Positions 2,957 to 37,813 are shown, counted from the first letter of the stretch. The stretch: 64,000 nt of DNA from an uncultured Pseudomonadota bacterium (GCA_964454175.1 CAYVSA010000001.1:9993-73992), one strand, 5' to 3'. Notes: generated by a model not told the origin, from the sequence alone. Made by a program: numbers and translations.

Positions 2957-3973
2957 TCAGCCCCCAATATGGCTCATTGTCCTGGAACAGGGCGGCGCGA
3001 AACCAGCGCCGTTGATGTGATGCCCTTCCGGTTTGGTTACAAGGGCGGTCTTGATGGCACTTAGCACCGCCTGGTCGCTGCAGCCCTCTCTCATCAGGGA
3101 AAGAAGATCGGTTTCGGCGTCCGAAAAAAGGCAGGTCCTCAAAAAACCGTCTGAAGTGAGCCTCACCCGGTTACACTGCACGCAGAACTCAGATGATATG
3201 GGAGTTATGAATCCCAGAGTTCCCAGATGTCCGGGTACCTGGTACCTCTGGGCAGGTCCGGCCCCCCGGCCCTTCCCCAGGGAGATCAGGTCGTATTCCG
3301 TTTTGATCCTGGCTGCAGCCTCTTTAGCGGTAAATACCCTGTCCGCAGACCAGAACCCGTTTGCCCCCAGGGGCATGAACTCAATGAAACGAACTTCGTA
3401 CTCCTCGTCGCGAGTCATGGCAACAAAGTCCATGAGTTCATCGTCGTTAAAGCCCCTCATCAGCACCACGTTGATCTTCACAGGGGTAAGGCCGGCCTCA
3501 GAGGCTGTTCGAATGCCCTCAAGGACCCGTGAGAGTCTTATGGCGGTTCCTGGGTCGTTCCTGTGGGTAATCCACCCGAATCTGTCATCTTTGAGGGTGT
3601 CCAGGCTAACATTTACCCTGGATAGGCCAGCTGCCTTGAGGGATAAAGCTCTCTGGGCGAGGAGGGTGCCGTTTGTGGTGAGGCTGAGATCTGATATCCC
3701 CGGTAATTTTGCCAGTGACCCAACGAGGCGCTCCAGGTGTTTTCTCACTAGAGGCTCACCGCCGGTAATGCGGACGCTGGAAACCCCTCGTTCACCCAGG
3801 ACCGCTACTATTCGTTCGATCTCCTCGTAGGTCATTATCTGCCCGTGGGCCAGATCTACGAAGTTATCCGGCGGGATGCAGTAAAGGCATCTCAGGTTGC
3901 ACCGGTCTGTCACCGATACCCTGACGTACTTTATTGGTCTGTTAAAACTGTCTAGCAATCGTTCACTGGTCAT
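2957..3973 (-). CDS. moaA: GTP 3',8-cyclase MoaA (radical SAM, molybdenum cofactor biosynthesis)
   Basis: It has the 'CNLRCLYC' radical-SAM cluster motif and a MoaA-like C-terminal cluster (CVQCNRVRLTSDG). I place the start at the internal Met 'MTSERLL' (ATG at 3971-3973). The 49 in-frame upstream codons overlap a structured leader and are not called coding. Confidence 0.9.
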   Translation of the reverse strand: MTSERLLDSFNRPIKYVRVSVTDRCNLRCLYCIPPDNFVDLAHGQIMTYEEIERIVAVLGERGVSSVRITGGEPLVRKHLERLVGSLAKLPGISDLSLTTNGTLLAQRALSLKAAGLSRVNVSLDTLKDDRFGWITHRNDPGTAIRLSRVLEGIRTASEAGLTPVKINVVLMRGFNDDELMDFVAMTRDEEYEVRFIEFMPLGANGFWSADRVFTAKEAAARIKTEYDLISLGKGRGAGPAQRYQVPGHLGTLGFITPISSEFCVQCNRVRLTSDGFLRTCLFSDAETDLLSLMREGCSDQAVLSAIKTALVTKPEGHHINGAGFAPPCSRTMSHIGG

Positions 3974-4138
3974 AGAATACAAAAAGGCTCGCTTCTGGCG
4001 AGCCCGGCCGCATAAGGACCTCTCCTTTCCAAAAACGGGAGGCCCATCCGTTTCCAGATGAACCCGTCGGCCGCTGACCGTAGGCTTGTCCGTTAGGCGC
4101 GCGGCTCGGAGAGCATGCATGAACTTAACAGAAATACC
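3974..4138 (-). ncRNA. Candidate Moco (molybdenum cofactor) riboswitch in the moaA leader
   Basis: The minus-strand leader contains 'CUCUCCGAGCC', 'CCUACGG' and 'GGAAAGGAGAGG' elements reminiscent of the Moco RNA motif. A terminator expression platform sits immediately 5' of the moaA ATG. Moco riboswitches classically precede moaA. The motif is recalled from memory, not scanned. Confidence 0.35.
3976..4004 (-). terminator. Intrinsic terminator hairpin (GGCUCGC-cagaa-GCGAGCC + UUUUU), about 10 nt upstream of the moaA start
   Basis: A perfect 7-bp GC-rich stem (3986-4004 on +) is followed on the minus strand by a U5 tract. It lies between the MshEN gene and moaA, with no room for a promoter downstream of it. 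Confidence 0.6.
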
Positions 4139-16604: not shown

Positions 16605-17087
16605 TTAACTGCTGGATCCTGTGATCCTGTCGATGATGCTGGAGGTGGATTCTCCCAGCCGGAAGGGAAGGGCGAGCACTTGGCCTCCGTTTCCCTTAAC
16701 GAAATCTCCCCCGACGATCTCATCCACTGGCCAGTCTCCGCCCTTGACCAGAATGTGGGGTTTGACTGCCTGGATCAGAGCAATCGGTGTTTGTTCCGCA
16801 AAGGGCACGACGGCGTCTACCCACCTTAACGAGAGAAGGATCTCGACCCTGGCGGCCTGGTTGAGAACAGGCCTTCCGGGGCCTTTCAGTTCCCTTACAG
16901 AATCATCAGAATTCAAGCCAACCACGAGAATATCACCCAGTGCTTTTGCCTGTTTCAGATAGCTGGTGTGGCCGGGATGGATCAGGTCAAAGCATCCGTT
17001 AGTAAAGACCACGGTCAAATCGTTGGCACGCCAGTGCGCTGCCCTTTCCTTTATGGATTCATGTGTATATTCGGATGGTTCAACCAT
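16605..17087 (-). CDS. hldE: D-glycero-beta-D-manno-heptose 1-phosphate adenylyltransferase (RfaE/HldE domain II, cytidylyltransferase family)
   Basis: 'VVFTNGCFDLIHPGHTSYL' is the nucleotidyltransferase (H/T)xGH motif, and 'VLVKGGDW' matches RfaE-II. Length is 160 aa. Confidence 0.75.
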   Translation of the reverse strand: MVEPSEYTHESIKERAAHWRANDLTVVFTNGCFDLIHPGHTSYLKQAKALGDILVVGLNSDDSVRELKGPGRPVLNQAARVEILLSLRWVDAVVPFAEQTPIALIQAVKPHILVKGGDWPVDEIVGGDFVKGNGGQVLALPFRLGESTSSIIDRITGSSS

Positions 17088-18079
17088 CAGGGCATCTGTT
17101 CCTTGACCAGAGCCAGCAGTAGGGGGAGGAGGATCTCATGATGGCCCGTGAGGGCAAAACTGCGCCCGCCGTAGGCAGTGGGCCGACCCAGTACGTTCAC
17201 GCGGGGTCTGTAATGCTGGATGAAATCCATATTCACGGTAGTAAGGCCCTTGACCGGATGTCCGAGGTTCCGTGCAAGCGAGAGGGCCTTGAGGAACACC
17301 TCAGGCATAATGACAGCCGACCCGAGATTTATGTATACACCATTATCCAGGGCAGCGACCTGACTTGCGAAAAGTAAAAAATCGGTCATGGATGCCGCGC
17401 CGGTGGCTGCTCCGTCACAACTTGGATGCATGTGGATTATGTCCGTGCCGATGGCTACGTGGACCGTAGCTGGTACAGGGGTTCTGGCAGCCGCAGCAAA
17501 AACACTGAGCCCGGAATGCTTCAGCCCGCCCCCTTCTATCATGCTTCCGACCGCATGCCCGATCCCTGTTCCTTCAGCAGCGGCCTGCGAAATAGCACTG
17601 TTGAGCGACACTGCTGTCTGCTCTGCCATCCCGAACTGACCGGACTCAAGACCTGCGCCCACATCCTCGGAAGTTTTTCCTGAGGCTGCAAGCTCATAGT
17701 CGTGAATGATCGCTGCACCGTTGGTGGCAATCCCGGTGAGTATGCCGGTTTCGATTGCATCTGCCAGGAGCGGGCCGAGTCCGACCTTGATCGGGTGGGC
17801 TCCCATGCCGAGAAGGACTCCGCAGCCATTTTTCCTGGCGACTGCTATTGCCTCGGCCGTTTCTTTCAGGTCACTGGATGCAAGGATATCCGGCAAGCTG
17901 TCAGTAAATTGGGATAATGTTGAGCCGCCCACGAGGGGTTTGCCCAGATCCTCAGCGCTGACTTTGCTTTGCCGTGAGTGAAGGGAGCAGGTTTTTACCT
18001 CACCCGGGATTATGCCTCTTGTCGGGGTGTTGGGATACTTTTTATCAATCATTTTTTCCTGCAAAGACAAGTATCTCAA
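17087..18079 (-). CDS. Conserved hypothetical protein of unknown function, sitting between gmhA and hldE-II
   Basis: It is a 330-aa Gly/Ala-rich soluble protein. It has no ribokinase-like kinase motifs and I do not recognise the family. Its 5' end overlaps the gmhA stop, so the true start may be an internal Met. Confidence 0.3.
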   Translation of the reverse strand: MRYLSLQEKMIDKKYPNTPTRGIIPGEVKTCSLHSRQSKVSAEDLGKPLVGGSTLSQFTDSLPDILASSDLKETAEAIAVARKNGCGVLLGMGAHPIKVGLGPLLADAIETGILTGIATNGAAIIHDYELAASGKTSEDVGAGLESGQFGMAEQTAVSLNSAISQAAAEGTGIGHAVGSMIEGGGLKHSGLSVFAAAARTPVPATVHVAIGTDIIHMHPSCDGAATGAASMTDFLLFASQVAALDNGVYINLGSAVIMPEVFLKALSLARNLGHPVKGLTTVNMDFIQHYRPRVNVLGRPTAYGGRSFALTGHHEILLPLLLALVKEQMP

Positions 18080-18677: not shown

Positions 18678-19322
18678 CTACTCGTTTGCAAGCTGGAATG
18701 CCAGACCCTCCAGGTCGATGGCAAAATCAACATTTCTCAGTATCGTTCCTGGCGGTACCTTGAGGGTAGCCGGAGTAAAGTTAAGTATGCCTTTTATGCC
18801 TGCATCAACAAGTTGATGGGCAACCTGGAAGGCGTTTTCCGGGTTTACCGCGATTATTCCTATCCTGATGCCCAACTCTTCCACAACGCGCCTCATCTTG
18901 TCCATGGAAAAGAGGGGGATATCCTTGAATGAACCCATCTCAACGAGTATGGGATCCTGCTCGAATATCGCCGCAATTTCAAATCCTCTCTTGGCCAGGG
19001 AATCGGTTCCGAGGAGTGCGAATCCCAGGTTTCCTGCTCCCACCAGAGCACAGCTCCAGGATCTGTCTATGCCGAGGGCCCTCTTGATATCCTCCTGAAG
19101 GTTCTCCACGTAGTACCCTACACCCCTGACCCCGAACTCGCCGAAATATGCAAAATCCTTCCTGATCTGAGCCGGGTTGGTCCCGCATTTTCGGGCAATG
19201 TCAGAGGAGGAAATGATCCTCTGTCCCGACTTCTGAACCTCCTCAAGGCACCTGTCGTAAAGGGAGAGGCGCCTTATAGTCGCTTCCGGGATCTTAACCC
19301 TGCTGACTTTTCTAAATACCAT
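18678..19322 (-). CDS. rex: Redox-sensing transcriptional repressor Rex
   Basis: The N-terminal wHTH 'IPEATIRRLSLYDRCLE' and the Rossmann NADH-binding 'ALVGAGNLGFAL' are present. Length is 214 aa. It overlaps the upstream cytochrome gene's end by 11 bp. Confidence 0.85.
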   Translation of the reverse strand: MVFRKVSRVKIPEATIRRLSLYDRCLEEVQKSGQRIISSSDIARKCGTNPAQIRKDFAYFGEFGVRGVGYYVENLQEDIKRALGIDRSWSCALVGAGNLGFALLGTDSLAKRGFEIAAIFEQDPILVEMGSFKDIPLFSMDKMRRVVEELGIRIGIIAVNPENAFQVAHQLVDAGIKGILNFTPATLKVPPGTILRNVDFAIDLEGLAFQLANE

Positions 19323-20676
19323 TTCTCACCTGCCTTGTAAGTTGCATAGCATTATCCAGGTCACTGCTGACTTTTTCCAGCACTTTCATAGTATAGCTGT
19401 AATTGTGGACCGGCACTCCGGCTTCGACAAAGGAGAGGTCGTTCCTGCTTTCAGACAGAAGCCTGCTGGCTTCATCCTTTCGATCTGATTGCGCCATGGA
19501 GGAGATGCCGGTATCGGCACTGCGAATCCTGGCCCGCACCGCGGCTATGGTTCTTGCCAGTTCATCACTCCAGGAAAGGAGCAGGTCCCCGCGACCAGTC
19601 TCATGGCAAAGTTCGCACCTTTTGCCGTCGGCCCTCATGCCGGGTTTGGCGGAATCGGTGCCGGACCCCTCCCTGGCGGCAGGTCCGTGACATGCCACGC
19701 ATTCTACTCCAGCGAGATACATTGGGGATGGTTCGGGCTCTACACCGGATATCCCTTCTCCGCCGTATAGCGACATGATGGCCCTGTGCCCGCCGCCATG
19801 ACAGAGGACGCAGCCGTTTTCAAGAACGACTCTCTGCTCCGGAAGCTGATGGCGTATAACGCTGTGGCATTCGCTGCACTCTACCTTGTGATCGGTTACG
19901 TGGCGTCTGTGAATGGTCTCGACGGATTCAGATGCTGTGACTTTGCCTGTCCTGCTGTGGCAGTCGGCGCAGTTCTCGTACAGGACATCGCCGCTTCCCT
20001 GGACAATGTCCAGGTGGCAGTAGCGGCAGTCTACTGATCTTTCCATAAAATCGGTGTGATCCAGCTTTCCGCCGGCATATTCCACAGGGTTTTCCGGCGG
20101 AGTGTGGCAAAGGGTACACGTGGCGGTGGGGGGATTGTTCTCGAACCCTTTGAAATGGCAAATAAAGCAGGCGCTTTCAGCAACGGTCATGTGATCTCCC
20201 ATGGCGATATGGGAGTGACACGTGGTACAGCGCAGTATCTTGCCACGGCTTAATTTCTGCATGTGGGGTTTGTGATCGAAAATAACGCCTTCCTTGTAAA
20301 CGACCTGACCCTCCAGCAGCCTGCCGGAATGGCATTCTGTCTGCAGGCAGTTAGCGTCCAGGACCTCTGCCCTGGTTCTTTCGCCATATGTGCGGGTGAA
20401 ATAGCTGCCGAGCTGCATAAAAGCGCGGAACCTGGGCATCAGGTGGCCGTCCTCATCAGGCCGGGTGTGGCACTGGACGCAGGGTACATTGTTGTGAGTC
20501 GATCCCTTCCAGTCTTGGTAATAGTGCTTCATGACGTGGCAGGTGTTGCCGCAAAATACCGCGGTTTCAGTCACCTTCAGAGTTGCCCACGTTGAGAAGA
20601 ACAGCAGCGCCAGGACAATGAGAAGAACTTCATAGAAGCGAAGCTTCCCGAGAAATTTAACTCCCCTCTCTTTCAT
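19312..20676 (-). CDS. NapC/NirT/NrfH-like membrane-anchored multiheme cytochrome c (about 12 CxxCH)
   Basis: There is an N-terminal TM helix, then 'CGNTCH' plus at least 10 further CxxCH motifs, including a CxxxCH variant. It is the last cytochrome gene of the operon. Confidence 0.8.
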   Translation of the reverse strand: MKERGVKFLGKLRFYEVLLIVLALLFFSTWATLKVTETAVFCGNTCHVMKHYYQDWKGSTHNNVPCVQCHTRPDEDGHLMPRFRAFMQLGSYFTRTYGERTRAEVLDANCLQTECHSGRLLEGQVVYKEGVIFDHKPHMQKLSRGKILRCTTCHSHIAMGDHMTVAESACFICHFKGFENNPPTATCTLCHTPPENPVEYAGGKLDHTDFMERSVDCRYCHLDIVQGSGDVLYENCADCHSRTGKVTASESVETIHRRHVTDHKVECSECHSVIRHQLPEQRVVLENGCVLCHGGGHRAIMSLYGGEGISGVEPEPSPMYLAGVECVACHGPAAREGSGTDSAKPGMRADGKRCELCHETGRGDLLLSWSDELARTIAAVRARIRSADTGISSMAQSDRKDEASRLLSESRNDLSFVEAGVPVHNYSYTMKVLEKVSSDLDNAMQLTRQVRNGI

Positions 20677-20880
20677 GACTGCCCTCTGACCGGGTCTTTA
20701 CAGGCTGGAATCTCGCTGTATAACAGGCCCGGTAAAGTCGAGATTGTGAATAACCCGACAGTTTGAGAAGATTAGCACAGGTCACCTTTGGTGTCAATTA
20801 ACATGCGGGTTTCACTAACATCGTGCCAGCAATATTAACCCCATACAGGCAAAGTTTAAGATACATCTGGGTACAAGTCC

Positions 20881-21750
20881 TCATCGGATCTCCATGAGGG
20901 CAGAGTAGATGATAAAGAGGACCATGGTCAGCCCGAGACCATAGGCCGCAAAACCTGCGATCCGTGACCAGATAACGGTGGTTCGGGTTGGCGGATCTGT
21001 TGTCAGATCTTCCAGTTTGCCCGCTTCAACAAGCCTTCTGTACTCTGCGGGTCTTTCGTGGACCAGTTCTTCCTCGGTTATCCTGCCCGTGAAGATGACA
21101 TTGTCCAGGGGGAACTTCTCGGGGCGAAGGTGGGTATTGAAAAAATGTACCGTGAATATGAAGCCTGCCGCCAGCAGTGCCTCATCGGAATGCAATATAA
21201 TAGAGACGTTAAAAGCCCAGCCAGGAAGGAACTTTGAGAAGAACTCCGGGAACCATAGAGTCAGCCCTGAAAAACCGATTATCCCGACACCCCAGAAGAC
21301 AGCGAGGTAGTCAAATTTCTCCCAGTATGTGAACCTGTCAAAATCAGGCCTGCTGCCCTTGCCGAGGAACCACCTGAAATGCCCGATGATATCTTCAAGA
21401 TCTTTTTTCCAGGGCATCATGGAATTAGGCCCTGTCAGGAAGGCAAAGAAGGGCTCCTCCCGAAGGCAGACAATATAATAGGCTGCCCATGCGAGGTGCA
21501 GCGTGAAGTAAACGAATGTAATGAAGCCGCAGACGCGGTGGATATAACCTGCAGTCTGGATGCCGCCCAGAAAAAGCGCAAAGGTCCTGGCCCAGGCAGC
21601 CTCACTGTACTTTAAGGGCATGCCGGTCAGGACCAGACCCATGAAACTGATGATTATCAGGGCGTGCAGAAATCGGTGGTAGTATTGGAACCGGAGGTAG
21701 TAAATGGGGTTTTTCTCCCCGTTCCGGAGGTCGTTTGCATAATTTATCAT
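20881..21750 (-). CDS. Membrane b-type cytochrome (Ni/Fe-hydrogenase or formate dehydrogenase gamma / PhsC-like di-haem b subunit)
   Basis: It has 5-6 TM helices with conserved His pairs in the TM segments (HRFLHAL, IHRV, HLAW, HFFNTH). It is flanked by the two multiheme c genes. Confidence 0.55.
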   Translation of the reverse strand: MINYANDLRNGEKNPIYYLRFQYYHRFLHALIIISFMGLVLTGMPLKYSEAAWARTFALFLGGIQTAGYIHRVCGFITFVYFTLHLAWAAYYIVCLREEPFFAFLTGPNSMMPWKKDLEDIIGHFRWFLGKGSRPDFDRFTYWEKFDYLAVFWGVGIIGFSGLTLWFPEFFSKFLPGWAFNVSIILHSDEALLAAGFIFTVHFFNTHLRPEKFPLDNVIFTGRITEEELVHERPAEYRRLVEAGKLEDLTTDPPTRTTVIWSRIAGFAAYGLGLTMVLFIIYSALMEIR

Positions 21751-21770
21751 TTCGTCCTCCCGCCTGTATT

Positions 21771-22967
21771 TCAGTTCAAATTATCTTTTTTCCTCTCTTC
21801 GATGTGCCCCCTCACCAGCCACAGTGCTGTGTGGATACCGAAGAATATGAATACCCCGGAGAGCAGGAGCACCATTGCCAGGTAGAGGTAATAGAGTCCG
21901 GGATAATTTTCCTTGTCGTGGTAATCGGCATGCGGAAGGTATTTGACGAAGTTGGCGTTGGCCCCAGGGTGGCAAACCCCGCAGGTTTTGACCAGGTTGC
22001 CGGGATGGACCATTGATTCATTGTCATCCCTTGGCAGGATGTTGTGAGCTCCGTGGCAGTCTGGACATTGGGCGGCTTTCGAATACCCCATGCCCGTCAC
22101 CTGCCCGTGGTAGGTGTTCTTGAAGGTGTCACTCTCCTTTTCGTGACAGCCTGAGCACCGCCTGGTCACTGTAAGCATAAAATCCTTGTCCATGGCACGG
22201 TCTACCTTGTGAGCACCGTGACAGGAGATACAGGTTGGTGCCTCCTGGCTGCCCTCGGTGAACGCACTGCCATGGACACTGGAATTGTAAACGTTCACTA
22301 TGCCGGCGTGGCACGAACTGCAGGTGGTATTGATCCTGTTTCTGTGGGTCATTGCCCTCTCATCGTCTGCGGAATAGATGTTGTGGCTGCCGTGGCAGTC
22401 ATTGCATACGGCCGAAAAGATCATGCCGCTCCTGAAAAGAACGATGCCGTGCATGCCCTCCTCGAAATCGGAGCACACGTCAGATCTGAGAGCAGGATGT
22501 CTTTCGAGGATCTCAGGGCTGTCGTGACAGGTGCAGCATGTTGCCGGCAAGTTCAGCTCATAGGCTCTGGATTGGACGTTGCTGGTTGGCAAAATGTCGT
22601 GCTTGCCGTGGCAGCTGGAGCAGACCGGCAGGTCCGTCCGGGTCCGCGCATTCCCTGGCGAGTGGTCGCTTACCCTGAATTTGGCGACCATGTCGTCATG
22701 GCAGCGGCCGCAGTCTACAGCTTCCACTTCCTCATCGTGTTCATCTTCAGCGTCTTCCAGTTGAACATGACAGTCTGTACAGTCCAGGTCCCCGTGTATC
22801 GATCGGGAGAAGACATCCTCATCTATAAACAGAGAAAGCTCCTCCCCATCTACTTCTTTTGTGAGTGTGTCATCAGAATGACAGTCGAAGCAATCTGAGG
22901 TGGTCAGGGCCTGGGCCGGAGCGTAAAGAAGAAGTATGGCCACCGACAGAATAAACGCATATCTCAT
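21771..22967 (-). CDS. Periplasmic multiheme cytochrome c (11 CxxCH) with a C-terminal TM anchor
   Basis: It has a Sec signal peptide and 11 CxxCH motifs, and ends in 'LYYLYLAMVLLLSGVFIFFGIHTALWLV'. It is the first gene of the operon. Confidence 0.8.
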   Translation of the reverse strand: MRYAFILSVAILLLYAPAQALTTSDCFDCHSDDTLTKEVDGEELSLFIDEDVFSRSIHGDLDCTDCHVQLEDAEDEHDEEVEAVDCGRCHDDMVAKFRVSDHSPGNARTRTDLPVCSSCHGKHDILPTSNVQSRAYELNLPATCCTCHDSPEILERHPALRSDVCSDFEEGMHGIVLFRSGMIFSAVCNDCHGSHNIYSADDERAMTHRNRINTTCSSCHAGIVNVYNSSVHGSAFTEGSQEAPTCISCHGAHKVDRAMDKDFMLTVTRRCSGCHEKESDTFKNTYHGQVTGMGYSKAAQCPDCHGAHNILPRDDNESMVHPGNLVKTCGVCHPGANANFVKYLPHADYHDKENYPGLYYLYLAMVLLLSGVFIFFGIHTALWLVRGHIEERKKDNLN

Positions 22968-23082
22968 TTTGCCCCCCTTCAGAACTTGATCGCGCTGGGC
23001 GCCGGATCGCTTGATAAAGTGTTAACTTTCACAAGTTCAAGCGAAACAAAAGGGGAGGGTGTTGTGCTCCTCCCCTTGGGGT

Positions 23083-29684: not shown

Positions 29685-30980
29685 ATGACTAAGATCCTGA
29701 CCCGAAACATAGACCGGCCCAACCCGGCGAATATTGACTCGTACCTCTACAACGAGGGTTACCAGGCGCTTCCCATGGCACTGAATGATATGATGCCTGA
29801 AGATGTGATCGATGAGGTAAAGGCCTCCCGCATCAGGGGCCGCGGCGGTGCCGGGTTCCCGGCAGGCATGAAGTGGGATTTTGCCTCCAGGGACCCAAGG
29901 GGGCCCAAGAACATTATTGCCAACGCCGATGAGGGTGAGCCCGGGACGTTCAAGGACAGGGTGCTCATCGAAAAAGATCCCCACGCTCTCCTGGAGGGCA
30001 TGGCCATAGCGGGCTACGCTGTCGGCGCTGAGTTGGGATTTGTCTACATACGGGGGGAATACCCGGAAGGCGCCAGAATACTTGAAAAGGCCATCGCTGA
30101 TGCAGAGGCCAGGTCGTTCCTTGGCAAAAACATCCTGAACTCGGGGTTCGATTTCACCATAACAGTTCACAGGGGTGCAGGTGCCTACATCTGTGGGGAG
30201 GAAACCGCCCTTATCGAGTCACTGGAGGGCAAGAGAGGCCAATCAAGGATCCGGCCGCCTTTCCCGGTGAACGTCGGCTACATGAATCTGCCAACAGTAG
30301 TTAACAACGTTGAGACCCTTGCTAATATCCCTCAGATCATTCTCAGGGGCGGTGAGTGGTATGCCGGGTTCGGAACCCGGGAGTGTACAGGCACCAAGCT
30401 CTACTCGATAAGCGGTAAGGTGGCCAGGCCCGGGGTATACGAATTGCCCATGGGGACCACACTCAGAGATCTGATATTCGAGCACTGCGGCGGGATGAAG
30501 GACGGCAGGAGCTTCAAGGCCGCATTCCCGGGCGGTGCTTCCAGCGCCTGTCTTGACGAGACCGGGCTCGATGTCCAGCTGGACTTCAACTCCCTCGCGG
30601 CAGCTGGCAGTATGCTGGGTTCAGGGGCCGTCATGGTCCTCGATGATTCGGACGATATGGTCAAGGCTGTTCATGTCCTCATCAAGTTTTTCGAGCACGA
30701 GTCGTGCGGTAAATGCACTCCCTGCAGGGAGGGGCTGTTCTGGATAAGGCAGATATTGGACAGGATCCTCGCAGGGGGAGGGACCGAGAGCGACCTGGAA
30801 CTTCTTCTGAACATAAGCGAAAATATTGCGTCCACTTCATTTTGCGGCCTTGGAGAAGCTTCGGTAAGCGCTCTGGTCAGCACTATTAAAAAGTTCAGGA
30901 GCGAATTTCTGGCTTACATAAACTCTCCTGAGGAAAAAGCCGAAGAAACATCGGCATCGGGGCAGGAGCAGGCATCGTGA
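29685..30980 (+). CDS. nuoF: NADH-quinone oxidoreductase subunit F (FMN/NADH-binding, 4Fe-4S)
   Basis: 'GRGGAGFPAGMKW', 'ESCGKCTPCREG' and 'CGLG' are present. Confidence 0.95.
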   Translation: MTKILTRNIDRPNPANIDSYLYNEGYQALPMALNDMMPEDVIDEVKASRIRGRGGAGFPAGMKWDFASRDPRGPKNIIANADEGEPGTFKDRVLIEKDPHALLEGMAIAGYAVGAELGFVYIRGEYPEGARILEKAIADAEARSFLGKNILNSGFDFTITVHRGAGAYICGEETALIESLEGKRGQSRIRPPFPVNVGYMNLPTVVNNVETLANIPQIILRGGEWYAGFGTRECTGTKLYSISGKVARPGVYELPMGTTLRDLIFEHCGGMKDGRSFKAAFPGGASSACLDETGLDVQLDFNSLAAAGSMLGSGAVMVLDDSDDMVKAVHVLIKFFEHESCGKCTPCREGLFWIRQILDRILAGGGTESDLELLLNISENIASTSFCGLGEASVSALVSTIKKFRSEFLAYINSPEEKAEETSASGQEQAS

Positions 30981-33652
30981 TGGTCAAGATCGAAATTGAC
31001 GGCCGTCAAGTTACTGTTAACGGCCACATCACCGTGCTGGAGGCTGCGAGCAAGCTCGGTATCTACATACCGACCTTCTGCCACCATCCAAGGCTCTCGG
31101 AGCTCGGCGCCTGCAGGATGTGCCTCGTGGAAGTGGAGGGCATGGGTAAACTGCAGACGGCCTGTACGCTTGCAGTTGCAGAGGGAATGGTGATCAGGAC
31201 CAGCACTGACAGGGTGGAAAAATCCCGCCGCGCCATGCTCGAATTCCTGTTGATCAACCATCCACTGGAATGCACTGTGTGCGACGCTTCGGGAGAATGC
31301 ACCCTCCAGGACTTCGCTTTCAAGTTCGGCAGCGCCGAGACGAGGTTCACCGAGAAAAAGAGGGTATTGCGCGACCATATCATAAGCCCCCTCATCGACA
31401 GGAATCTGAACAGGTGCATCCAGTGCAAGCGGTGCGTTAGAATTTGTGACGAAGTTCAGGGCGTCACTGCCCTGGGTATGTCCTACCGCGGGGCAAAGAC
31501 TGTGGTGGGGCCATTTATGGAAAAATCACTGGACTGCGAATACTGCGGCCACTGCATATGGGCCTGCCCGGTGGGTGCCATCACTTCGCGGGTTATGAGA
31601 CACAAGATCCGCACGTGGGAGATGGACAAGGCTGAGGCTATATGCGCGTTCTGCAGCTGCGGCTGCACGCTCACATACAATCACAGGGACAACAGGGTCT
31701 ACAAGGTCACCCACGCTGACGGCAGGGGTGTTAATCAGGGCAGTCTCTGCTCGAGGGGTTATTTCGGATATGATGTGATAAACAGCCCGGAAAGGCTAAC
31801 GACACCACTTGTCCGAAAAGATGGTGAACTGGTTCAGGCAACATGGGAGGAGGCCCTTGAGACCGTTGCATCCGCGCTGGGCAAAGCTGCCGGTGAGGGC
31901 GGTGAAAACGCGGTGGGAGGCATCGTATCAGCTCGGCTTACAAACGAGGAACTATATCTGTTTCAGAAGCTGATGAGATCCTGCCTGTCCAGCAACTGTG
32001 TTGATGTGACCACCGGAGAGTGGAACAGAACAGTCCTTCCAGTACTTGAGGAAAGGCTGGGTGTCTTTGCTGCCACCAACTCCTTAGACGAGGTCACCTA
32101 TGCTGACTCCCTCATCATAATCGGCTGCGACATTACGGTGGAAAACCCCATAACTGGTATAAAGGTGAAGTCGGCCATCCACAGAGGGGGGTCGGTTTCC
32201 GAGATCAACCCCAGGAAAACAGCCCTGTCCCGCATGACAAAGAGGACCATGCTGGTTAGGCCCGGCAACGAACTTACCCTGGTTAAGGGCTTGATCAGGG
32301 CGGTCTTTGACGAGGATCTGATCAGCCAGGAGGACGGGAGCACCTGCAGCAACCTGGATGAACTCAGGCTGTCGGTATTAGACCAGGACCTGAAGTCGAT
32401 CTCCGATGAAACAGGAGTGTCTCAGGAAGACATCACAGGCCTTGCCAGGGAGTTCATGGGGGCGCGCAGGGCGTCCATAATATTCGGTGAGTCTGCTGTC
32501 ATGACTGAGCAGGGTCCGGCTCTTATCAATGCACTTATCGACCTGCTCATGCTCACCGGGAAATTGGGTCAGGAGGGTTTCGGCCTGTATCCCGTAAACG
32601 GTACAGCCAATTTTCAGGGAGCAGTGGACATGGGGGTCGCGCCGGCTCACCTGCCTGGCCACGCCCCCCTTGCTGTAAAGGGCTCGGCTAAAATGCTGGC
32701 CGACGCATGGAAGTCCTCTATCCCGGAAGGCCAGGGTCTTTCGGCTCCACAGATGCTTAAGGCTGCAGTGGAAGGTTCCCTGAAAACGCTCTATGTAGTG
32801 GGTGTAGACATAACCGGTTCTTTCCCCGACAGTTCGATCGCAGAAAAGGCCCTGTCTAACCTGGATTTCCTTGTTGTGCAGGACCTTTTCCTCACGGATA
32901 CAGCAAGGGCGGCAGATGTTGTTCTGCCCGCTGGCAGCCTGGCTGAAAAAAACGGCACCCTTACCAACGTGGAAAGGCGAATCCAGAGAACACGCAGGGC
33001 CATCGACGGGCTGGGGAAGTCCATGCCTGACTGGAGGATCTTTTCTGAACTCGGCGTAGCCCTGGGCCATATGGAAATGAAATATGTGAATGCTGCAGAG
33101 GTGCTGGACGAGATCGCGCAGACCGTGCCCTACTACTCCGGCATCAACCATCGAATACTGGCAGATAATGGGCTCCAGTGGCCCTTCACCCAGGATGACG
33201 CCAGGGAAGTTTACCATGAAGGTTATCTCGGGACCCGCCACCTCCTTTCAGGAGGAGTCGCTGACAGTCTCAGGTCATTTGCAGCCGTGAAATCCTGGGG
33301 CAAAGTGCCAGCGAACGCCGATTATCCCTATACCCTGGTCACAGGAGATCTCCTGTCCCATTCGGGCACCTTCACGCGCTACTCTGAATCGTTGAACAAG
33401 ATAGACTCTGAAGGTGCTGTCGTTATGAATCCGGAAACCGGGGCCAGCCTGGGCATAGATGATGGAGGAAAAGCCAGGGTTGTTTCGGCCCATGGTGAAC
33501 TAACTGTAAAGACCATTTATTCAGAAGACCTCATGGAGGATATTTTCTTCCTTCCGAAACATTTTGCCGACGTACCTGCAGGCAGGTTGATGAGTGCGTC
33601 GGGAAACGGCAGCGAGACTGCTGTTGTGCAGGTACGCGTGGAAAGAGCGTGA
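30977..33652 (+). CDS. nuoG: NADH-quinone oxidoreductase subunit G (long form, Mo-free molybdopterin-oxidoreductase fold)
   Basis: The N-terminal 2Fe-2S 'CHHPRLSELGACRMC', the clusters 'HPLECTVCDASGEC' and 'CIQCKRCVRICDE', and 'CAFCSCGCT' are present. There is no Cys/Sec or His at the FDH active-site position. Confidence 0.9.
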   Translation: MMVKIEIDGRQVTVNGHITVLEAASKLGIYIPTFCHHPRLSELGACRMCLVEVEGMGKLQTACTLAVAEGMVIRTSTDRVEKSRRAMLEFLLINHPLECTVCDASGECTLQDFAFKFGSAETRFTEKKRVLRDHIISPLIDRNLNRCIQCKRCVRICDEVQGVTALGMSYRGAKTVVGPFMEKSLDCEYCGHCIWACPVGAITSRVMRHKIRTWEMDKAEAICAFCSCGCTLTYNHRDNRVYKVTHADGRGVNQGSLCSRGYFGYDVINSPERLTTPLVRKDGELVQATWEEALETVASALGKAAGEGGENAVGGIVSARLTNEELYLFQKLMRSCLSSNCVDVTTGEWNRTVLPVLEERLGVFAATNSLDEVTYADSLIIIGCDITVENPITGIKVKSAIHRGGSVSEINPRKTALSRMTKRTMLVRPGNELTLVKGLIRAVFDEDLISQEDGSTCSNLDELRLSVLDQDLKSISDETGVSQEDITGLAREFMGARRASIIFGESAVMTEQGPALINALIDLLMLTGKLGQEGFGLYPVNGTANFQGAVDMGVAPAHLPGHAPLAVKGSAKMLADAWKSSIPEGQGLSAPQMLKAAVEGSLKTLYVVGVDITGSFPDSSIAEKALSNLDFLVVQDLFLTDTARAADVVLPAGSLAEKNGTLTNVERRIQRTRRAIDGLGKSMPDWRIFSELGVALGHMEMKYVNAAEVLDEIAQTVPYYSGINHRILADNGLQWPFTQDDAREVYHEGYLGTRHLLSGGVADSLRSFAAVKSWGKVPANADYPYTLVTGDLLSHSGTFTRYSESLNKIDSEGAVVMNPETGASLGIDDGGKARVVSAHGELTVKTIYSEDLMEDIFFLPKHFADVPAGRLMSASGNGSETAVVQVRVERA

Positions 33653-33665
33653 GGAGGTATAGACG

Positions 33666-34133
33666 ATGATCGATATCAGCCAGCTCAAGGCAATATCCTC
33701 CCTTGAAGGAGTGTCAGAGGACGCACTGTCGGAATTGGCCAGGGTAATGCAGAAGAGGGTCTACAAAGACTCTGACCCTATTTTTAACGAGAACACCGAA
33801 GGCGGTGACCTTTATCTCGTGGGCGAGGGATCCGTGAAGTTGGAGAAAAGGGCAAAAGAGGGAGAGGCCCAGAGCCTGTCAGTGGTTCGTGCCGGCGATT
33901 TCCTCGGGATAATGACCTTCCTTGTGGGCGGCAAGCACTCTGCAAGCGCCGTGGCCCATGACGACTGCACACTTTACGTCCTGGACAAGGCCTCTTTTGA
34001 TGCTTTCGTTGAAAAGTTCCCGGCCGATGCCAACAGCATCTTCATGATATTTATAGAACGGCTCATCGAATCAGTCAGAAGCATGTATGAGCGGTACATC
34101 GATATGGTCAACTACATGTGGAGGTGGCGGTGA
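33666..34133 (+). CDS. Standalone cyclic nucleotide-binding (CAP effector-like) domain protein
   Basis: 'LYLVGEGSVKLEK...VVRAGDFLGIMTFLVGGKHSASAVAHDDCTLYVLDKASF' is a cNMP-binding beta-barrel. There is no DNA-binding HTH. Its stop overlaps the next start by 16 nt. Confidence 0.6.
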   Translation: MIDISQLKAISSLEGVSEDALSELARVMQKRVYKDSDPIFNENTEGGDLYLVGEGSVKLEKRAKEGEAQSLSVVRAGDFLGIMTFLVGGKHSASAVAHDDCTLYVLDKASFDAFVEKFPADANSIFMIFIERLIESVRSMYERYIDMVNYMWRWR

Positions 34134-34651
34134 ACCCTGAGGAAATTGAGGGATACGAGGAAGAAGAAGAGCTCGATCTTTCTCCCGTCAATGACATACT
34201 GAGTGACCTGGGCGACGCGAAGGGGATGCTGATCCCGCTTCTGCAGGAAGTCCAGAAGGTTTTCGGGTATGTACCTGAAGACGCCGCCAATATGGTTGCC
34301 GATGGGCTGGGCCTTTACCGCAGCCAGGTCTATGGTGTTCTGACATTTTATACGCAGTTCCACCTGAGCCCCAGGGGACGGCATATCATACGCGCATGTT
34401 CCGGGACTGCCTGCCACGTCAGGGGCGGTAAGAGCGTTATTGCCAGGCTGGAGAATCTCCTGGAGATCGAACATGGAGAGACCACAGAAGACGGGCTTGC
34501 TTCCTTTGAAAAAGTTGCCTGCCTCGGGGCGTGCGGTCTCGCCCCGGTGATCATGATAGACAACGATGCCTTCGGACAGGTGGATCCAACAAAGACCGAG
34601 CGGATAATCGAGAACCTGCGCGAGGTGTCCGGCACACAGAAAAGTGATTGA
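34118..34651 (+). CDS. Second NuoE/HoxE/FdsG-like 2Fe-2S subunit
   Basis: The ligands 'CSGTACHVRGG...CLGACGLAPV' are present. It has an acidic N-terminal extension. Confidence 0.85.
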   Translation: MEVAVNPEEIEGYEEEEELDLSPVNDILSDLGDAKGMLIPLLQEVQKVFGYVPEDAANMVADGLGLYRSQVYGVLTFYTQFHLSPRGRHIIRACSGTACHVRGGKSVIARLENLLEIEHGETTEDGLASFEKVACLGACGLAPVIMIDNDAFGQVDPTKTERIIENLREVSGTQKSD

Positions 34652-34681
34652 TCGGCCGTAACAGGGAGGGCCGAAAGAGAT

Positions 34682-37600
34682 ATGTCTAAAAGTTCAAACG
34701 ATAAACTGATCGTACTGGGAATGGGCACATGCGGCCTGGCTTCCGGCGCGCGTGGAGTCCTCTCCCAGGTTGAAGAGGAACTTACCAGCCTCAAGCTGGA
34801 TGTGCCTATCCTTAAGACCGGCTGCATAGGGATGTGCTACCAGGAGGTTCTCCTGGACGTGTCACTCCCTGGCCGTACCAGGGTCACCTACGCCAAAGTT
34901 CAGCCCGAGATGGTCTCAAAGATCATTGAAAGCCATGTCGTAAAGGGAAAACCCGTAAACGATTACGCCATCGGGCAGATACAGCAGAACGGTGAAAAGG
35001 CGTATAAGGGCATCCCGACTTACGACGAGATGGATTTCTTCGCGAAGCAAAAGCGGATCGTTCTTCGGCGCTGTGGATTCATCGACCCTGACAAGATCGA
35101 GGATTACCTTGACACAGATGGTTACAAGGCCGCGGAAAAGGCCCTGACAACGCTATCGCCGACCGTGATCAGGGAGATCGTCAAGAAGGCTGGCCTGAGG
35201 GGCCGCGGCGGAGGCGGATTCCCCACCGGTCTCAAGTGGGAGTTCTGCGCCACGGCGGCAGGGGAACCGAAGTACCTCATCTGTAACGCGGATGAGGGTG
35301 ATCCGGGCGCCTTTATGGACAGGAGCGTTCTGGAAGGTGACCCGCACGCGCTGCTGGAGGGAATGATCATTGCGGCCTATGCTATCGGCGCAGAATACGG
35401 CTATATTTACTGCCGCGCAGAGTATCCCCTGGCGATCGAGAGACTGGGAACCGCTATTGCCCGGGCCGAGGAAAAAGGATTCCTGGGAAAGAATATATTC
35501 GGTACTGACTTTTCCTTTACCCTCAGGATCAAGGAGGGCGCCGGAGCTTTCGTCTGCGGCGAGGAAACTGCTCTCATGGCGTCCATCGAGGGTAAACGGG
35601 GCATGCCCCGATCGAGACCGCCTTTCCCTGCTCATAAAGGTCTCTGGGGTAAACCTTCCAACATCAACAACGTCGAGACTTTTGCCTGTGTCGCCCCCAT
35701 CATCCTTGGAGGCGCTGACAGTTATTCCTCGATCGGGACCGAAGGCACCAAGGGCACGAAAGTTTTCGCCCTTACCGGAAAGATCAATAACACGGGGCTG
35801 ATCGAGGTCCCCGCCGGTACCCAGCTAAAGGAGATAATTTACGATATCGGGGGCGGTATTGTTGGTGGAGGCAAGTTCAAAGCCGCCCAGCTCGGGGGCC
35901 CTTCAGGAGGCTGCCTGCCCGCCGAGATCGTTGAAACACCCATCGATTACGATTCACTGATCGAAGCCGGAGCCATGATGGGTTCGGGCGGCGTAGTTAT
36001 AATGGACGAGCGGACTTGCATGGTGGACGTTGCCAGGTTCTTTTTGAACTTCACAACTTCCGAGTCCTGCGGGAAATGTGTGCCCTGCCGCCTTGGGACC
36101 AAGACAATGCTCAGCATCCTGGAGCGTATCACCGCTGGCAAAGGTACCATGCAGGACCTTGTCAACCTGGAGGAGATGGGTGCACAGATAAAGACTACTT
36201 CCCTGTGCGGTCTGGGACAGACTGCCCCGAACCCGGTACTTTCCACCATCAGGTACTTCAGACACGAGTACGAGGCCCACATATTAAACAAGAGATGCCC
36301 CGCGGTAGTTTGCAAGGAGGTCATCTCATCACCGTGCCAGCATGTATGCCCTATCGAGACGGATGTTCCAGCATATGTAACCCTTATCGGGCAGGGGAAA
36401 TTCACGGCCGCTCTTGATCTCATCCGCATGACCAATCCCCTCCCGGCTGTCTGCGGCAGGGTCTGCCATCATCCGTGCGAAAGCAAGTGCAGACGCGGAG
36501 AACTGGACAGGCCTATCAGCATCAGAAACCTCAAGAGGGTAGCCTCCGATAACGCTGCCGCCGATGCTGCCACCGGAAAGTACCAGATCAAGTCAAAGAA
36601 GATCTCCGGCAAGGGAAAGAAGGTCGCTATCATCGGGGGCGGGCCTTCCGGTCTCACGGCAGCCCACTTCCTCGCACTCAAGGATTTTTCCCCTGTCATT
36701 TTCGAAAAACAGAGGGTAGCGGGCGGCATGCTTATGCTGGGAATACCTGAGTACCGCCTGCCGAGACAGACACTGAACCATGAGATCAGGGCAATCGAAG
36801 ATATGGGTGTCCAGATCCATTACAGCACCCCGGTGGGCGAGGCTGTCTCCTTCGATCAGCTCAGGATGGATCATGAAGCTGTATTTATTGCATCCGGTGC
36901 CCACGTCGATCTCAAGATGGGCATACCAGGTGAGGATTCCGAAGGGGTGTATGAAAGCCTCAGCTTCCTCAGAAGGGTTAACCTGGGAGAAGAAGTGGCA
37001 CTGGGAAACAAGGTTGCAGTCGTTGGTGGAGGCAATACCGCCATTGACGCATCGAGGATCGCCAGGCGCCTGGGTGCTGACGTGACGATCCTCTACAGGA
37101 GAACGCAAAATGAAATGCCCGCTGATGACATGGAGATCCATGAGGCTCTCCTGGAGGGTATAGAGCTGGAAACGCTCGTGGCCCCGGTGAAGGTACTTTC
37201 GTCCGGCGGGAAAATGACTGGCGCCACCTGTATCAGGATGGAACTTGGCGAGCCTGATTCTTCCGGAAGACGAAGGCCGGTTCCCATAGAGGGGTCCGAG
37301 TTTGACATTCACCTCGACAACCTGATCGTTGCAGTTTCAGGCAAGCCCGACCTTTCATACCTCACCGACAAACACGGGATAGGACTTTCCAGGTGGGATA
37401 CGGTGGATGTTCACCCCTACACGCAGATGACCAACGTGGAAGGCGTGTTTGCCGGGGGCGACGTGGTTACAGGCCCATGGATGGTCATAGATGCAATTGC
37501 AGCCGGCAAGAGGGCGGCAGCACACATGGAGCTGTTCTTAAACGGGGAGGAAGTTGCCCCATTGTACGATGTCACAAAACCCAATATCTCGGGAATAGAG

Positions 37601-37765
37601 GCAATTGAGCTTACGGATGAGGACATGACCCTTACGAGGCCTGACATGCCCACACTCGAAGTTGTCAAGAGGTTAAAGGACTTCGCTGAGGTTGAACTGG
37701 GTTTTTCCAAAGAAGAGGCTATGAAAGAGGCCAGGCGCTGCCTGCGCTGTGACATTTCTGATTAA
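34682..37765 (+). CDS. Fusion protein: thioredoxin-like 2Fe-2S domain + NuoF/HoxF/FdsB-like FMN-NADH domain + GltD-like NAD(P)H/FAD domain
   Basis: The N-terminus 'GMGTCGLASGA...CIGMCYQ' precedes the NuoF core with 'GRGGGGFPTGLKW', 'ESCGKCVPCRLG' and 'CGLG'. After that comes 'CQHVCPIE...CGRVCHHPCESKC', then the Rossmann folds 'VAIIGGGPSGLTAA' and 'VAVVGGGNTAID', and a C-terminal 'RCLRCD'. Length is 1027 aa. Confidence 0.85.
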   Translation: MSKSSNDKLIVLGMGTCGLASGARGVLSQVEEELTSLKLDVPILKTGCIGMCYQEVLLDVSLPGRTRVTYAKVQPEMVSKIIESHVVKGKPVNDYAIGQIQQNGEKAYKGIPTYDEMDFFAKQKRIVLRRCGFIDPDKIEDYLDTDGYKAAEKALTTLSPTVIREIVKKAGLRGRGGGGFPTGLKWEFCATAAGEPKYLICNADEGDPGAFMDRSVLEGDPHALLEGMIIAAYAIGAEYGYIYCRAEYPLAIERLGTAIARAEEKGFLGKNIFGTDFSFTLRIKEGAGAFVCGEETALMASIEGKRGMPRSRPPFPAHKGLWGKPSNINNVETFACVAPIILGGADSYSSIGTEGTKGTKVFALTGKINNTGLIEVPAGTQLKEIIYDIGGGIVGGGKFKAAQLGGPSGGCLPAEIVETPIDYDSLIEAGAMMGSGGVVIMDERTCMVDVARFFLNFTTSESCGKCVPCRLGTKTMLSILERITAGKGTMQDLVNLEEMGAQIKTTSLCGLGQTAPNPVLSTIRYFRHEYEAHILNKRCPAVVCKEVISSPCQHVCPIETDVPAYVTLIGQGKFTAALDLIRMTNPLPAVCGRVCHHPCESKCRRGELDRPISIRNLKRVASDNAAADAATGKYQIKSKKISGKGKKVAIIGGGPSGLTAAHFLALKDFSPVIFEKQRVAGGMLMLGIPEYRLPRQTLNHEIRAIEDMGVQIHYSTPVGEAVSFDQLRMDHEAVFIASGAHVDLKMGIPGEDSEGVYESLSFLRRVNLGEEVALGNKVAVVGGGNTAIDASRIARRLGADVTILYRRTQNEMPADDMEIHEALLEGIELETLVAPVKVLSSGGKMTGATCIRMELGEPDSSGRRRPVPIEGSEFDIHLDNLIVAVSGKPDLSYLTDKHGIGLSRWDTVDVHPYTQMTNVEGVFAGGDVVTGPWMVIDAIAAGKRAAAHMELFLNGEEVAPLYDVTKPNISGIEAIELTDEDMTLTRPDMPTLEVVKRLKDFAEVELGFSKEEAMKEARRCLRCDISD

Positions 37766-37813
37766 CGGGAGCAGCCTGCGTTAAAGCAGTTAATGAGGAG
37801 TAGGGAAAAGAGC

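Follow-up and report, generated by a model that had tools for sequence, protein, structure and literature searches.

Why should the gene for an NADH/NAD+ sensor stand directly behind a set of multihaem cytochrome genes, and does the sensor control them? We address this question for a 64,000-nucleotide (nt) stretch of DNA from an uncultured Pseudomonadota bacterium (GCA_964454175.1 CAYVSA010000001.1:9993-73992; hereafter the window), in which the cytochrome genes cytC1, cytB and cytC2 are followed by rex. Rex is typically autoregulated and governs respiratory genes, and the rex-hemACD operon of Streptomyces coelicolor is a known Rex operon. In Geobacter, the inner-membrane quinol oxidases CbcL, CbcBA and ImcH are separate and tuned to the potential of the acceptor. 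An initial annotation of the window had read the four genes as a single operon ended by rex, encoding a quinol-linked conduit to the periplasm or the cell exterior under NADH/NAD+ control. Our analysis leads to a different arrangement, in which the cytochromes entered an older backbone that already held rex, cytC2 and rex would share a transcript, and Rex would act at two cytochrome promoters. We hold this overall explanation of the locus with slightly more confidence than doubt. Each of its parts belongs to a known kind or is a variant of one (Rex, Cbc-type, NapC/NirT-type and the OcwA/NrfA module) and the wiring alone is new, namely the insertion of cytochromes into an atpZIBE-rex backbone and the conserved junction that couples translation of rex to that of a 12-haem NrfH-type cytochrome. 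Also new is the recognition that the uncharacterised cytC2 family habitually adjoins CbcL-type genes.

The four open reading frames (ORFs) first annotated are real, and all lie on the minus strand:

22967..21771, minus strand: cytC1, an ORF of 398 amino acids (aa)
21750..20881, minus strand: cytB, an ORF of 289 aa
20676..19312, minus strand: cytC2, an ORF of 454 aa
19322..18678, minus strand: rex, an ORF of 214 aa for the NADH/NAD+-sensing transcriptional repressor

The gap between cytC1 and cytB is 20 bp and that between cytB and cytC2 is 204 bp; the 11-bp overlap proposed for the cytC2 and rex ORFs agrees with the sequence (19312-19322), and gmhA starts 42 bp 3' of rex. cytC1 and cytC2 are the sole multihaem ORFs within the 64-kb window.

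The cytochromes are an insertion into an atpZIBE-rex backbone

Outside the window's lineage, cytC2 neighbourhoods were sampled at 76 loci, which span Bipolaricaulota, Binatia, Methylomirabilota, Gemmatimonadota, Acidobacteriota, Planctomycetota and others. A cytB-like gene lies in the flanks of 39 of these loci, and an adjacent pair of cytC1-like and cytB-like genes in 26, with the pair on the cytC2 strand in 23 cases. rex was found in the flanks of a single locus, 6 kb off, on the opposite strand and at 37% identity. Because the pair recurs and rex appears in just 1 of the 76 loci, the functional unit is taken to be the three cytochromes, with rex as a lineage-specific neighbour.

Within the sampled clade the gene order is hemL-atpZ-atpI-atpB-atpE-cytC1-cytB-(insert)-cytC2-rex-gmhA-...-mfd-surA. 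In three other lineages, atpZIBE is followed directly by rex with no cytochrome gene between them (L092 (Nitrospinota), L094 and L095 (Rokubacteria)); mfd-surA stands after rex in L095, and hemL upstream in L094. This argues that the atpZIBE-rex(-mfd-surA) backbone is older and that the cytochromes were inserted between atpE and rex. The view that rex was recruited to a cytochrome operon is thus reversed, the cytochromes being the insert. Taken jointly, the insertion history and the identities of the encoded proteins described below are highly probable.

Two further arrangements bear on the history of the locus. In L091, a deep member of the clade, the order is a 9-haem cytC1, cytB, a terminator, a gene for a 491-aa membrane protein, a second terminator, the repeat TTGTGAACGACTTTGTGAAC and rex. 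The 491-aa protein (L091 7277-8752) is polytopic, occupies the position of cytC2, has no haem motif and no Pfam match, and its gene is flanked by the two strong terminators. In two Thermodesulfobacteriota metagenome-assembled genomes (MAGs; L093 and L096), rex lies directly after a cytC2-like gene with 16 CxxCH motifs and before hemL, with no atp genes; rex there comes with a promoter of its own and a 1-mismatch Rex box, and a fused 9-haem CbcL-type gene is nearby.

rex shares a conserved junction with cytC2 downstream of an internal promoter

The following elements delimit the predicted transcription units:

23044..23077, minus strand: intrinsic terminator that closes atpE, with a G+C-rich stem of 9 bp and then UUUUGUUU; sets the 5' limit of the cytochrome unit
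23010..23035, minus strand: conserved non-coding box CTTGTGAAAGTTAACACTTTATCAAG, immediately past the atpE terminator, with some 45 nt left before cytC1
20744..20797, minus strand: internal promoter P2, with TTGACA, a 17-nt spacer and the extended -10 element TGcTAATCT
19320..19331, minus strand: ribosome-binding site AGGTGA and ATG of rex, within the last codons of cytC2; the translational-coupling junction

The atpE terminator folds as RNA with -16.5 kcal/mol (z = -2.69), and an equivalent hairpin and T-run are found at the same position in L001, L004, L006, L008 and L013. The box behind it, which may serve as a Rex operator or a promoter element, contains the Rex-like sequence TTGTGAAAGTTAACACTT, with 4 mismatches to the Rex operator TTGTGAAnnnnTTCACAA. 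Six genomes retain this box (the window, L001, L004/5, L013, L006 and L008), amid a flanking spacer that is unalignable. At the matching position in L094, where the order is atpE terminator, box and rex, stands TTGTGATTGTTAACACAA, which resembles TTGTGAAAGTTAACACTT. We refer to this region upstream of cytC1 as P1. Sigma-70 and sigma-54 hexamers were considered for the P1 box and rejected, as the 12-nt spacing does not fit. In L004 (7221-7709; identical in L005), the atpE-cytC1 spacer is 489 bp long and carries three direct repeats of about 110 bp with internal hairpin-like parts, downstream of the conserved TTGTGAAAG box.

P2 lies in the cytB-cytC2 gap. Its consensus, TTGACA-17-TG(c)TAA(t/a)(c/a)T, is kept in nine lineage genomes, and is followed at fixed distance by a TTCTCAA element and an invariant TTCACAA Rex half-site, the latter 29-30 nt past TGTGCTA. 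RNA folding gave no terminator-like fold in the cytB-cytC2 gap, and no terminator was found after rex, where there is just a weak hairpin without a U-run before gmhA. A single operon terminated by rex is therefore not what the locus encodes: a conserved sigma-70 promoter lies in the cytB-cytC2 gap, and the unit has no terminator past rex. In L008 (5107-8004), and likewise in L012, L013 and L075, P2 is followed by inserted genes for a Rieske protein, cytochrome b, a ~145-aa protein and a 9-haem cytochrome c, and this set continues into cytC2. In these four genomes the bc-type complex, cytC2 and rex share one promoter.

The junction between cytC2 and rex was compared across ten related genomes. 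It varies from the 11-bp overlap to a 14-bp gap, AGGTGA always standing before the ATG, and cytC2 diverges to 42% identity among the genomes that share it. Since in none of the ten is the junction long enough for a promoter or terminator to fit, nothing separates rex from cytC2 there, and the two genes are predicted to be co-transcribed, as the initial annotation had proposed for rex and the last cytochrome gene. We consider it likely that P2 is the promoter of this shared transcript.

Rex is canonical and its candidate operators are degenerate

As judged from profile and structure matches, the product of rex is a genuine Rex, and its first identification holds. It scores 261.8 bits against the NCBIfam equivalog NF003993 (cut-off 217), contains the winged-helix (PF06971, E = 5.5e-20) and Rossmann (PF02629, E = 4.3e-15) domains with GAGNLG present, and matches the solved Rex proteins 5zz5, 3wg9, 1xcb and 2vt2 over its full length (residues 9-213) with E = 1e-45 to 1e-32, the best being 5zz5 (1.1e-45). 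Identity across the lineage is 81-93%. The close relatives (65-100% identity) form a tight clade, with the next relatives at <=53%, and the DNA-binding region looks canonical.

Rex-like sites with 4 mismatches number 23 in the window. Because the core pattern of the operator is not enriched window-wide (see below), only clustering at particular positions is informative. Three respiratory intergenic regions were considered: upstream of cytC1, the cytB-cytC2 gap and the hemL/nuoA gap. In them or at their edges lie five sites with <=4 mismatches, compared with 0.37 expected, and none of 2,000 shuffles reached five; one of the five covers the ribosome-binding site of cytC1 and is doubtful. Upstream of cytC1 there are 2 Rex-like sites vs 0.07 expected, and in the cytB-cytC2 gap two 4-mismatch sites (20744, 20763) vs 0.13 expected. 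The 4-mismatch sites coincide with the conserved P1 box and the P2 elements. Rex control of the cytochrome promoters is plausible on these grounds, at close to an even chance.

Several observations weigh against such control and against a general coupling of rex to the cytochromes. Within 3 mismatches, TTGTGAAnnnnTTCACAA has 0 matches in the window vs 2.6 expected. No such operator stands at the related cytochrome promoters either, where 8 related loci gave three scattered 3-mismatch matches, and the relaxed core TTGTG-N8-CACAA is not enriched in the window (27 vs 25.8 expected). No convincing promoter hexamers were found at P1. As the DNA-binding region of this Rex is canonical, degenerate boxes may bind it weakly. 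Finally, in L091 cytC2 is missing and rex stands behind a terminator, so the coupling is not universal in the lineage. Of the redox control by Rex that had been proposed, the conserved degenerate boxes and the half-sites at both promoters therefore speak for the claim, and the absence of any operator within 3 mismatches speaks against it.

Rex boxes in front of rex itself are present in L093, L096 and L094. In L093 (8915-9020) and L096 (8907-9020), the near-perfect Rex operators TTGTGAAGGGACTCACAA and TTGTGAAAGGGGTCACAA overlap the annotated GTG of rex, just 3' of a TTGACA...TATTAAAT promoter. The position of the operator over the GTG suggests that the true start of rex probably lies further downstream than annotated, and that the gene is autoregulated in these genomes. 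In Desulfovibrio, the predicted Rex regulon includes qrcABCD, dsrMKJOP and dhcA-rnf (PMC4045070), so Rex control of multihaem quinone-linked complexes is not new. The present locus resembles that regulon in its multihaem quinone-linked genes, for which Rex control is plausible here, and differs from known Rex operons in the translational coupling that joins rex to the gene of a multihaem cytochrome and in boxes that are only degenerate.

The arrangement could also be a historical accident, in which the cytochromes landed in the rex backbone, Rex does not regulate them and the overlap reflects compaction. The boxes would then belong to another regulator, for example of the CRP/FNR type, or to the promoters themselves. 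CRP/FNR-type factors also recognise TGTGA-N6-TCACA. Such an origin agrees with the cytochrome-free backbone in the three other lineages, with a window that has no canonical Rex box and no window-wide enrichment of the core, with L091, where the gene for an unrelated membrane protein of 491 aa, flanked by terminators, separates cytB from rex, and with the 75 of 76 out-of-lineage cytC2 loci that lack rex. Against it stands the junction, which has been retained in 10 genomes together with its internal ribosome-binding site, even as cytC2 falls to 42% identity. Moreover, the Rex-like sites cluster exactly at both cytochrome promoter regions, the P1 box agrees with the pre-rex box of L094 in position and sequence, and the two Thermodesulfobacteriota MAGs have rex directly after a cytC2-like gene in a non-atp context. 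We therefore regard an accident, and with it the assignment of the boxes to another factor, as unlikely, although it keeps some weight, and favour a functional link between Rex and the cytochromes.

cytC2 combines an NrfH-type head with an OcwA/NrfA-like module

cytC2 has one N-terminal transmembrane (TM) segment (residues 8-36), 10 CxxCH motifs, one CGNTCH (CX3CH) and one CLQTECH (CX4CH). Its 24 Cys form 12 pairs, and all 12 pairs and their His are invariant in 49 homologues, so that a count of 12 haems is reasonable; the figure first given stands as a number of sites, with the qualification that two of the motifs are atypical.

The N-terminal part justifies the earlier description as NapC/NirT-like, as it matches both the NrfH model and solved NrfH (2j7a_C). 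TIGR03153 aligns residues 17-157 of cytC2 to positions 6-136 of the 138 in the NrfH model, with a score of 58.2 bits, under the equivalog cut-off of 134.2. The first haem motif, C42-GNT-C46-H47-V48-M49, stands 6 residues past the TM segment and reads CX3CHXM, with one extra residue between the Cys. The haem-1 signature of NrfH is CXXCHXM (bioRxiv 10.1101/2023.05.03.539133) and the first haem motif of ImcH is CXXXCH (PMC4251993, PMC6295460); cytC2 joins the ImcH-like CXXXCH with the NrfH-like HXM. It shares with the NrfH/NapC/NirT proteins a single N-terminal membrane anchor directly before a tetrahaem module that aligns across the NrfH model, but it scores below the equivalog cut-off (58 vs 134), exceeds their small size (about 140-200 aa) and has no dedicated reductase partner, with none of nrfA, napA, torA or dorA near cytC2 among the window ORFs. 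With ImcH it shares the CX3CH motif after the TM segment, where the NrfH model aligns, but not the three TM segments, the about 7 haems (6-10 in homologues) or the monocistronic gene. Its 12 haems in 454 aa compare with 4 in NrfH and CymA and 7 in ImcH, its 1 TM segment with 3 in Geobacter ImcH, and its CX4CH motif and OcwA/NrfA-like C-terminal module set it further apart from NrfH, CymA and ImcH.

Behind the NrfH module follow c3/c7-like haems and then the C-terminal module. The cytC2 family profile recovers OcwA (6I5B) at E = 1.7e-23 and the C-termini of NrfA at E = 4e-6 to 1e-4, and also the C-terminal parts of octahaem nitrite reductases (ONR); about residues 208-448 of cytC2 correspond to OcwA residues 249-497. 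A predicted, haem-free model of cytC2 (mean predicted local distance difference test, pLDDT, 73.7) ends in the helices 362-392, 398-419 and 426-451, and the superfamily of OcwA, NrfA, ONR and MccA oligomerises through three long terminal helices (PMC9250108). In Foldseek against the PDB, the top matches of the model were MccA, NrfA and ONR, all weak (E > 0.04), as would follow from its mediocre quality; the C-terminal assignment rests on the sequence profile rather than on Foldseek. The C-terminal half of cytC2 is thus homologous to that of OcwA from Thermincola potens and has the same three long final helices. However, OcwA is a soluble nonahaem terminal reductase on the Gram-positive cell surface, whereas cytC2 is anchored in the inner membrane, by prediction, and fused to a quinol-dehydrogenase head; unlike NrfA, it has no CxxCK motif. 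By its domain composition, cytC2 is an NrfH-type quinol dehydrogenase fused to an OcwA/NrfA-like C-terminal module. ActA/ACIII was rejected as the family of cytC2, since it gave just a marginal local match (6lod, 6btm).

The family comprises 526 clusters (50% identity) at E <= 1e-30, and is present in at least 587 species genomes. No experimental characterisation of a 12-haem NrfH-OcwA fusion was found in the literature searched, and an exact-sequence look-up of the window's own cytC2 (P0001) returned no record. Most family members are 600-750 aa long, with an added C-terminal extension, and some relatives (P0422, P0450, P0470 and P0505) reach 1300-1440 aa, with the 12-haem module C-terminal (about 880-1310).

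As its C-terminal half belongs to the OcwA/NrfA/MccA superfamily, a catalytic role of cytC2 is possible. It could be a self-contained quinol:substrate reductase acting on a soluble substrate in the periplasm, for instance nitrite, hydroxylamine, NO or a sulfur oxyanion, with cytC1-cytB as a second entry to or exit from the quinone pool. Besides the profile matches to OcwA, NrfA and the octahaem nitrite reductases and the top Foldseek matches, weak as they are, this agrees with the in vitro nitrite or NO reductase activity of every member of the superfamily (PMC9250108) and with the near-invariant H297 of cytC2 (CVLCH-GGG-H), which aligns with an HH pair of OcwA. Should the two chain numberings differ by about 29, the pair may correspond to H380/H381, which sit next to a five-coordinate haem (PMC9250108). 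The catalytic haem of this superfamily is five-coordinate, marked by CxxCK in NrfA or by a distal His that does not bond to it. On the other hand, CxxCK is missing from cytC2, and the NrfA match is limited to the C-terminal haems and helices and does not reach the catalytic N-terminal part. There are also nine invariant and two near-invariant non-motif His, which with Met49 would permit all 12 haems to be six-coordinate (a count only), and the Foldseek matches (E > 0.04) come from a model with a pLDDT of 73.7. We consider a self-contained reductase with cytC1-cytB as a second quinone connection improbable, and prefer to see cytC2 as a quinol dehydrogenase with an extended haem chain.

cytC1 and cytB form a split CbcL/CbcBA-type complex

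cytC1 and cytB had been described as a secreted cytochrome with eleven CxxCH motifs and a C-terminal TM anchor and as a polytopic b-type cytochrome, and motif counts and topology bear out both descriptions. cytC1 has exactly 11 CxxCH motifs, a hydrophobic N-terminal signal (residues 3-23) and a C-terminal TM segment (356-386), and matches the Pfam families Cytochrome_C7, c3_2 and Paired_CXXCH. It was rejected as a DmsE/MtrA-type decahaem protein (54 bits vs a cut-off of 192). cytB has no CxxCH, nine His and five TM-like segments; its Pfam Ni_hydr_CYTB score of 28.7 bits lies slightly below the cut-off of 30.1, and it matches the NCBIfam formate dehydrogenase gamma subunit with E = 1.1e-6. Its fold is of the FdnI type with the conserved His placed in TM helices, and it is probably a di-haem, quinone-interacting subunit.

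cytC1 and then cytB align collinearly to single proteins of 657-662 aa with 6 TM segments, which have 11 haems in L010 and 9 in L093. Identity is 39% between cytC1 and residues 1-381 of the fused 662-aa L010 protein, and 51% between cytB and the b-domain of the fused proteins. CbcL is described as having nine CxxCH motifs and a b domain of the HydC/FdnI kind within six TM helices (PMC6295460), and the CbcL/MtrH/MtoC family has a reported CxxCH range of 3-23. The 11 CxxCH motifs and signal peptide of cytC1 fit the c-domain of this family, and the order of a periplasmic multihaem c part followed by six TM helices with a HydC/FdnI-like b part and conserved His is that of CbcL (GSU0274), here as 1+5 TM segments. 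The single polypeptide of the family is replaced by two ORFs 20 bp apart, with fused relatives in L010 and L093, and the 11 haems compare with 9 in CbcL, known by its published description. CbcBA (GSU0593-0594) consists of a 7-haem c subunit with a C-terminal TM helix and a separate di-haem b subunit with 4 TM helices (bioRxiv 10.1101/2023.05.03.539133). The split design and the C-terminal anchor of cytC1 are like it; the numbers differ (11 haems vs 7 in CbcA, 5 TM segments in cytB vs 4 in CbcB), as do the gene order, here c then b, and the regulator context. Likened by published architecture, cytC1 is the periplasmic c-subunit of a split CbcL/CbcBA-type complex.

Because cytC1 and cytB match the published CbcL and CbcBA designs, and have fused relatives, the resemblance to Cbc-type oxidoreductases first noted is well founded at the level of architecture; the accompanying idea that they pass quinol electrons to the cell exterior found no support. 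Topology supports a periplasmic location for both haem chains. An extracellular role is not borne out, since with cytC1 and cytC2 as the only two multihaem ORFs the 64-kb window holds no porin-cytochrome or other outer-membrane conduit, no terminal reductase and no other multihaem protein.

A working model for the locus

The model builds on gene content, folds, family relations, synteny and the conserved junction, promoter and boxes, which are observed; transcript structure, Rex binding, the direction of electron flow and the electron partner are inferred. Two inner-membrane modules would link the (mena)quinone pool to periplasmic haem chains. In the first, the 11-haem cytC1 would be tethered by its C-terminal TM segment on cytB, with its FdnI fold, 5 TM segments and probably two haems. 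The second would consist of the cytC2 TM helix, the NrfH-type tetrahaem head and eight further haems ending in OcwA/NrfA-type helices. The three-cytochrome set would have entered the backbone in one lineage, with the atpE terminator and its Rex-like box on one side and rex on the other. P1, past that terminator, would drive cytC1-cytB, and as no terminator lies behind cytB, read-through from this unit is possible. P2 would drive cytC2 and the translationally coupled rex, probably on into gmhA; since cytC2 and rex would share the P2 transcript, Rex synthesis would be tied to expression of the NrfH-type module. With Rex bound to the degenerate boxes at P1 and P2, a rise in NADH/NAD+ would derepress both the quinol-oxidising cytochromes and rex, which amounts to negative autoregulation.

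The locus leaves known principles unchanged. It presents CbcL-type and NrfH/ImcH-like modules as genes that recur side by side across many phyla that are known chiefly through metagenomes; in one lineage the NrfH-type half would be hard-wired to production of the NADH/NAD+ sensor Rex. Binding of Rex to the conserved boxes, if it occurs, would complete a simple circuit by which the redox state of the cytoplasm bears on which respiratory outlet is used.

Electrons might instead flow inward, from a periplasmic or extracellular donor to the quinone pool, as proposed for MtoC and the CymA homologues of Fe(II) oxidisers. The FdnI fold, which cytB shares, works as a quinone reductase in Escherichia coli Fdn-N. 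The CbcL/MtrH/MtoC family has Fe(II)-oxidiser members, and no sequence feature parts quinol oxidases from quinone reductases (PMC6295460). Yet the window contains neither a donor-side enzyme nor an outer-membrane conduit, and derepression at high NADH would suit an electron outlet better than an inlet; we consider uptake quite improbable.

Very improbable, finally, is a cytochrome-only Mitchell redox loop made by pairing an FdnI-type bc complex with an NrfH-type cytochrome, a pairing present at 26 of the 76 loci, in many phyla and usually on one strand. The quinone site of FdnI in Fdn-N faces the cytoplasm and that of NrfH-type quinol dehydrogenases the periplasm. Donor electrons would reduce menaquinone at the cytoplasmic side via cytC1-cytB, and cytC2 would reoxidise menaquinol at the periplasmic side and pass the electrons to a periplasmic or extracellular acceptor of higher potential. 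If this were true, proton-motive force would arise without any cytoplasmic substrate, and in the window's lineage the amount of Rex would be tied to the outlet half.

Other features of the window

A molybdenum-cofactor riboswitch (RF01055, 63.5 bits; window 4006-4123, minus strand) overlaps the 5' end of the ORF 2957-4120, which encodes MoaA (Radical_SAM and Mob_synth_C). The overlap with the aptamer means that the real moaA start must be downstream of the riboswitch.

The nuo operon (30977-40597, plus strand) encodes, after an 891-aa NuoG, a NuoF-like protein fused to a GltD/pyridine-nucleotide-disulphide oxidoreductase (1027 aa in all) and next a second NuoG/molybdopterin-type protein of 934 aa. 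These extras form an unusual added NAD(P)H-side module within the complex I operon.

Between gmhA (SIS domain) and the gene for an HldE-like cytidylyltransferase lies a 330-aa ORF (17087-18079, minus strand) with no Pfam match, which is syntenic in each related genome examined.

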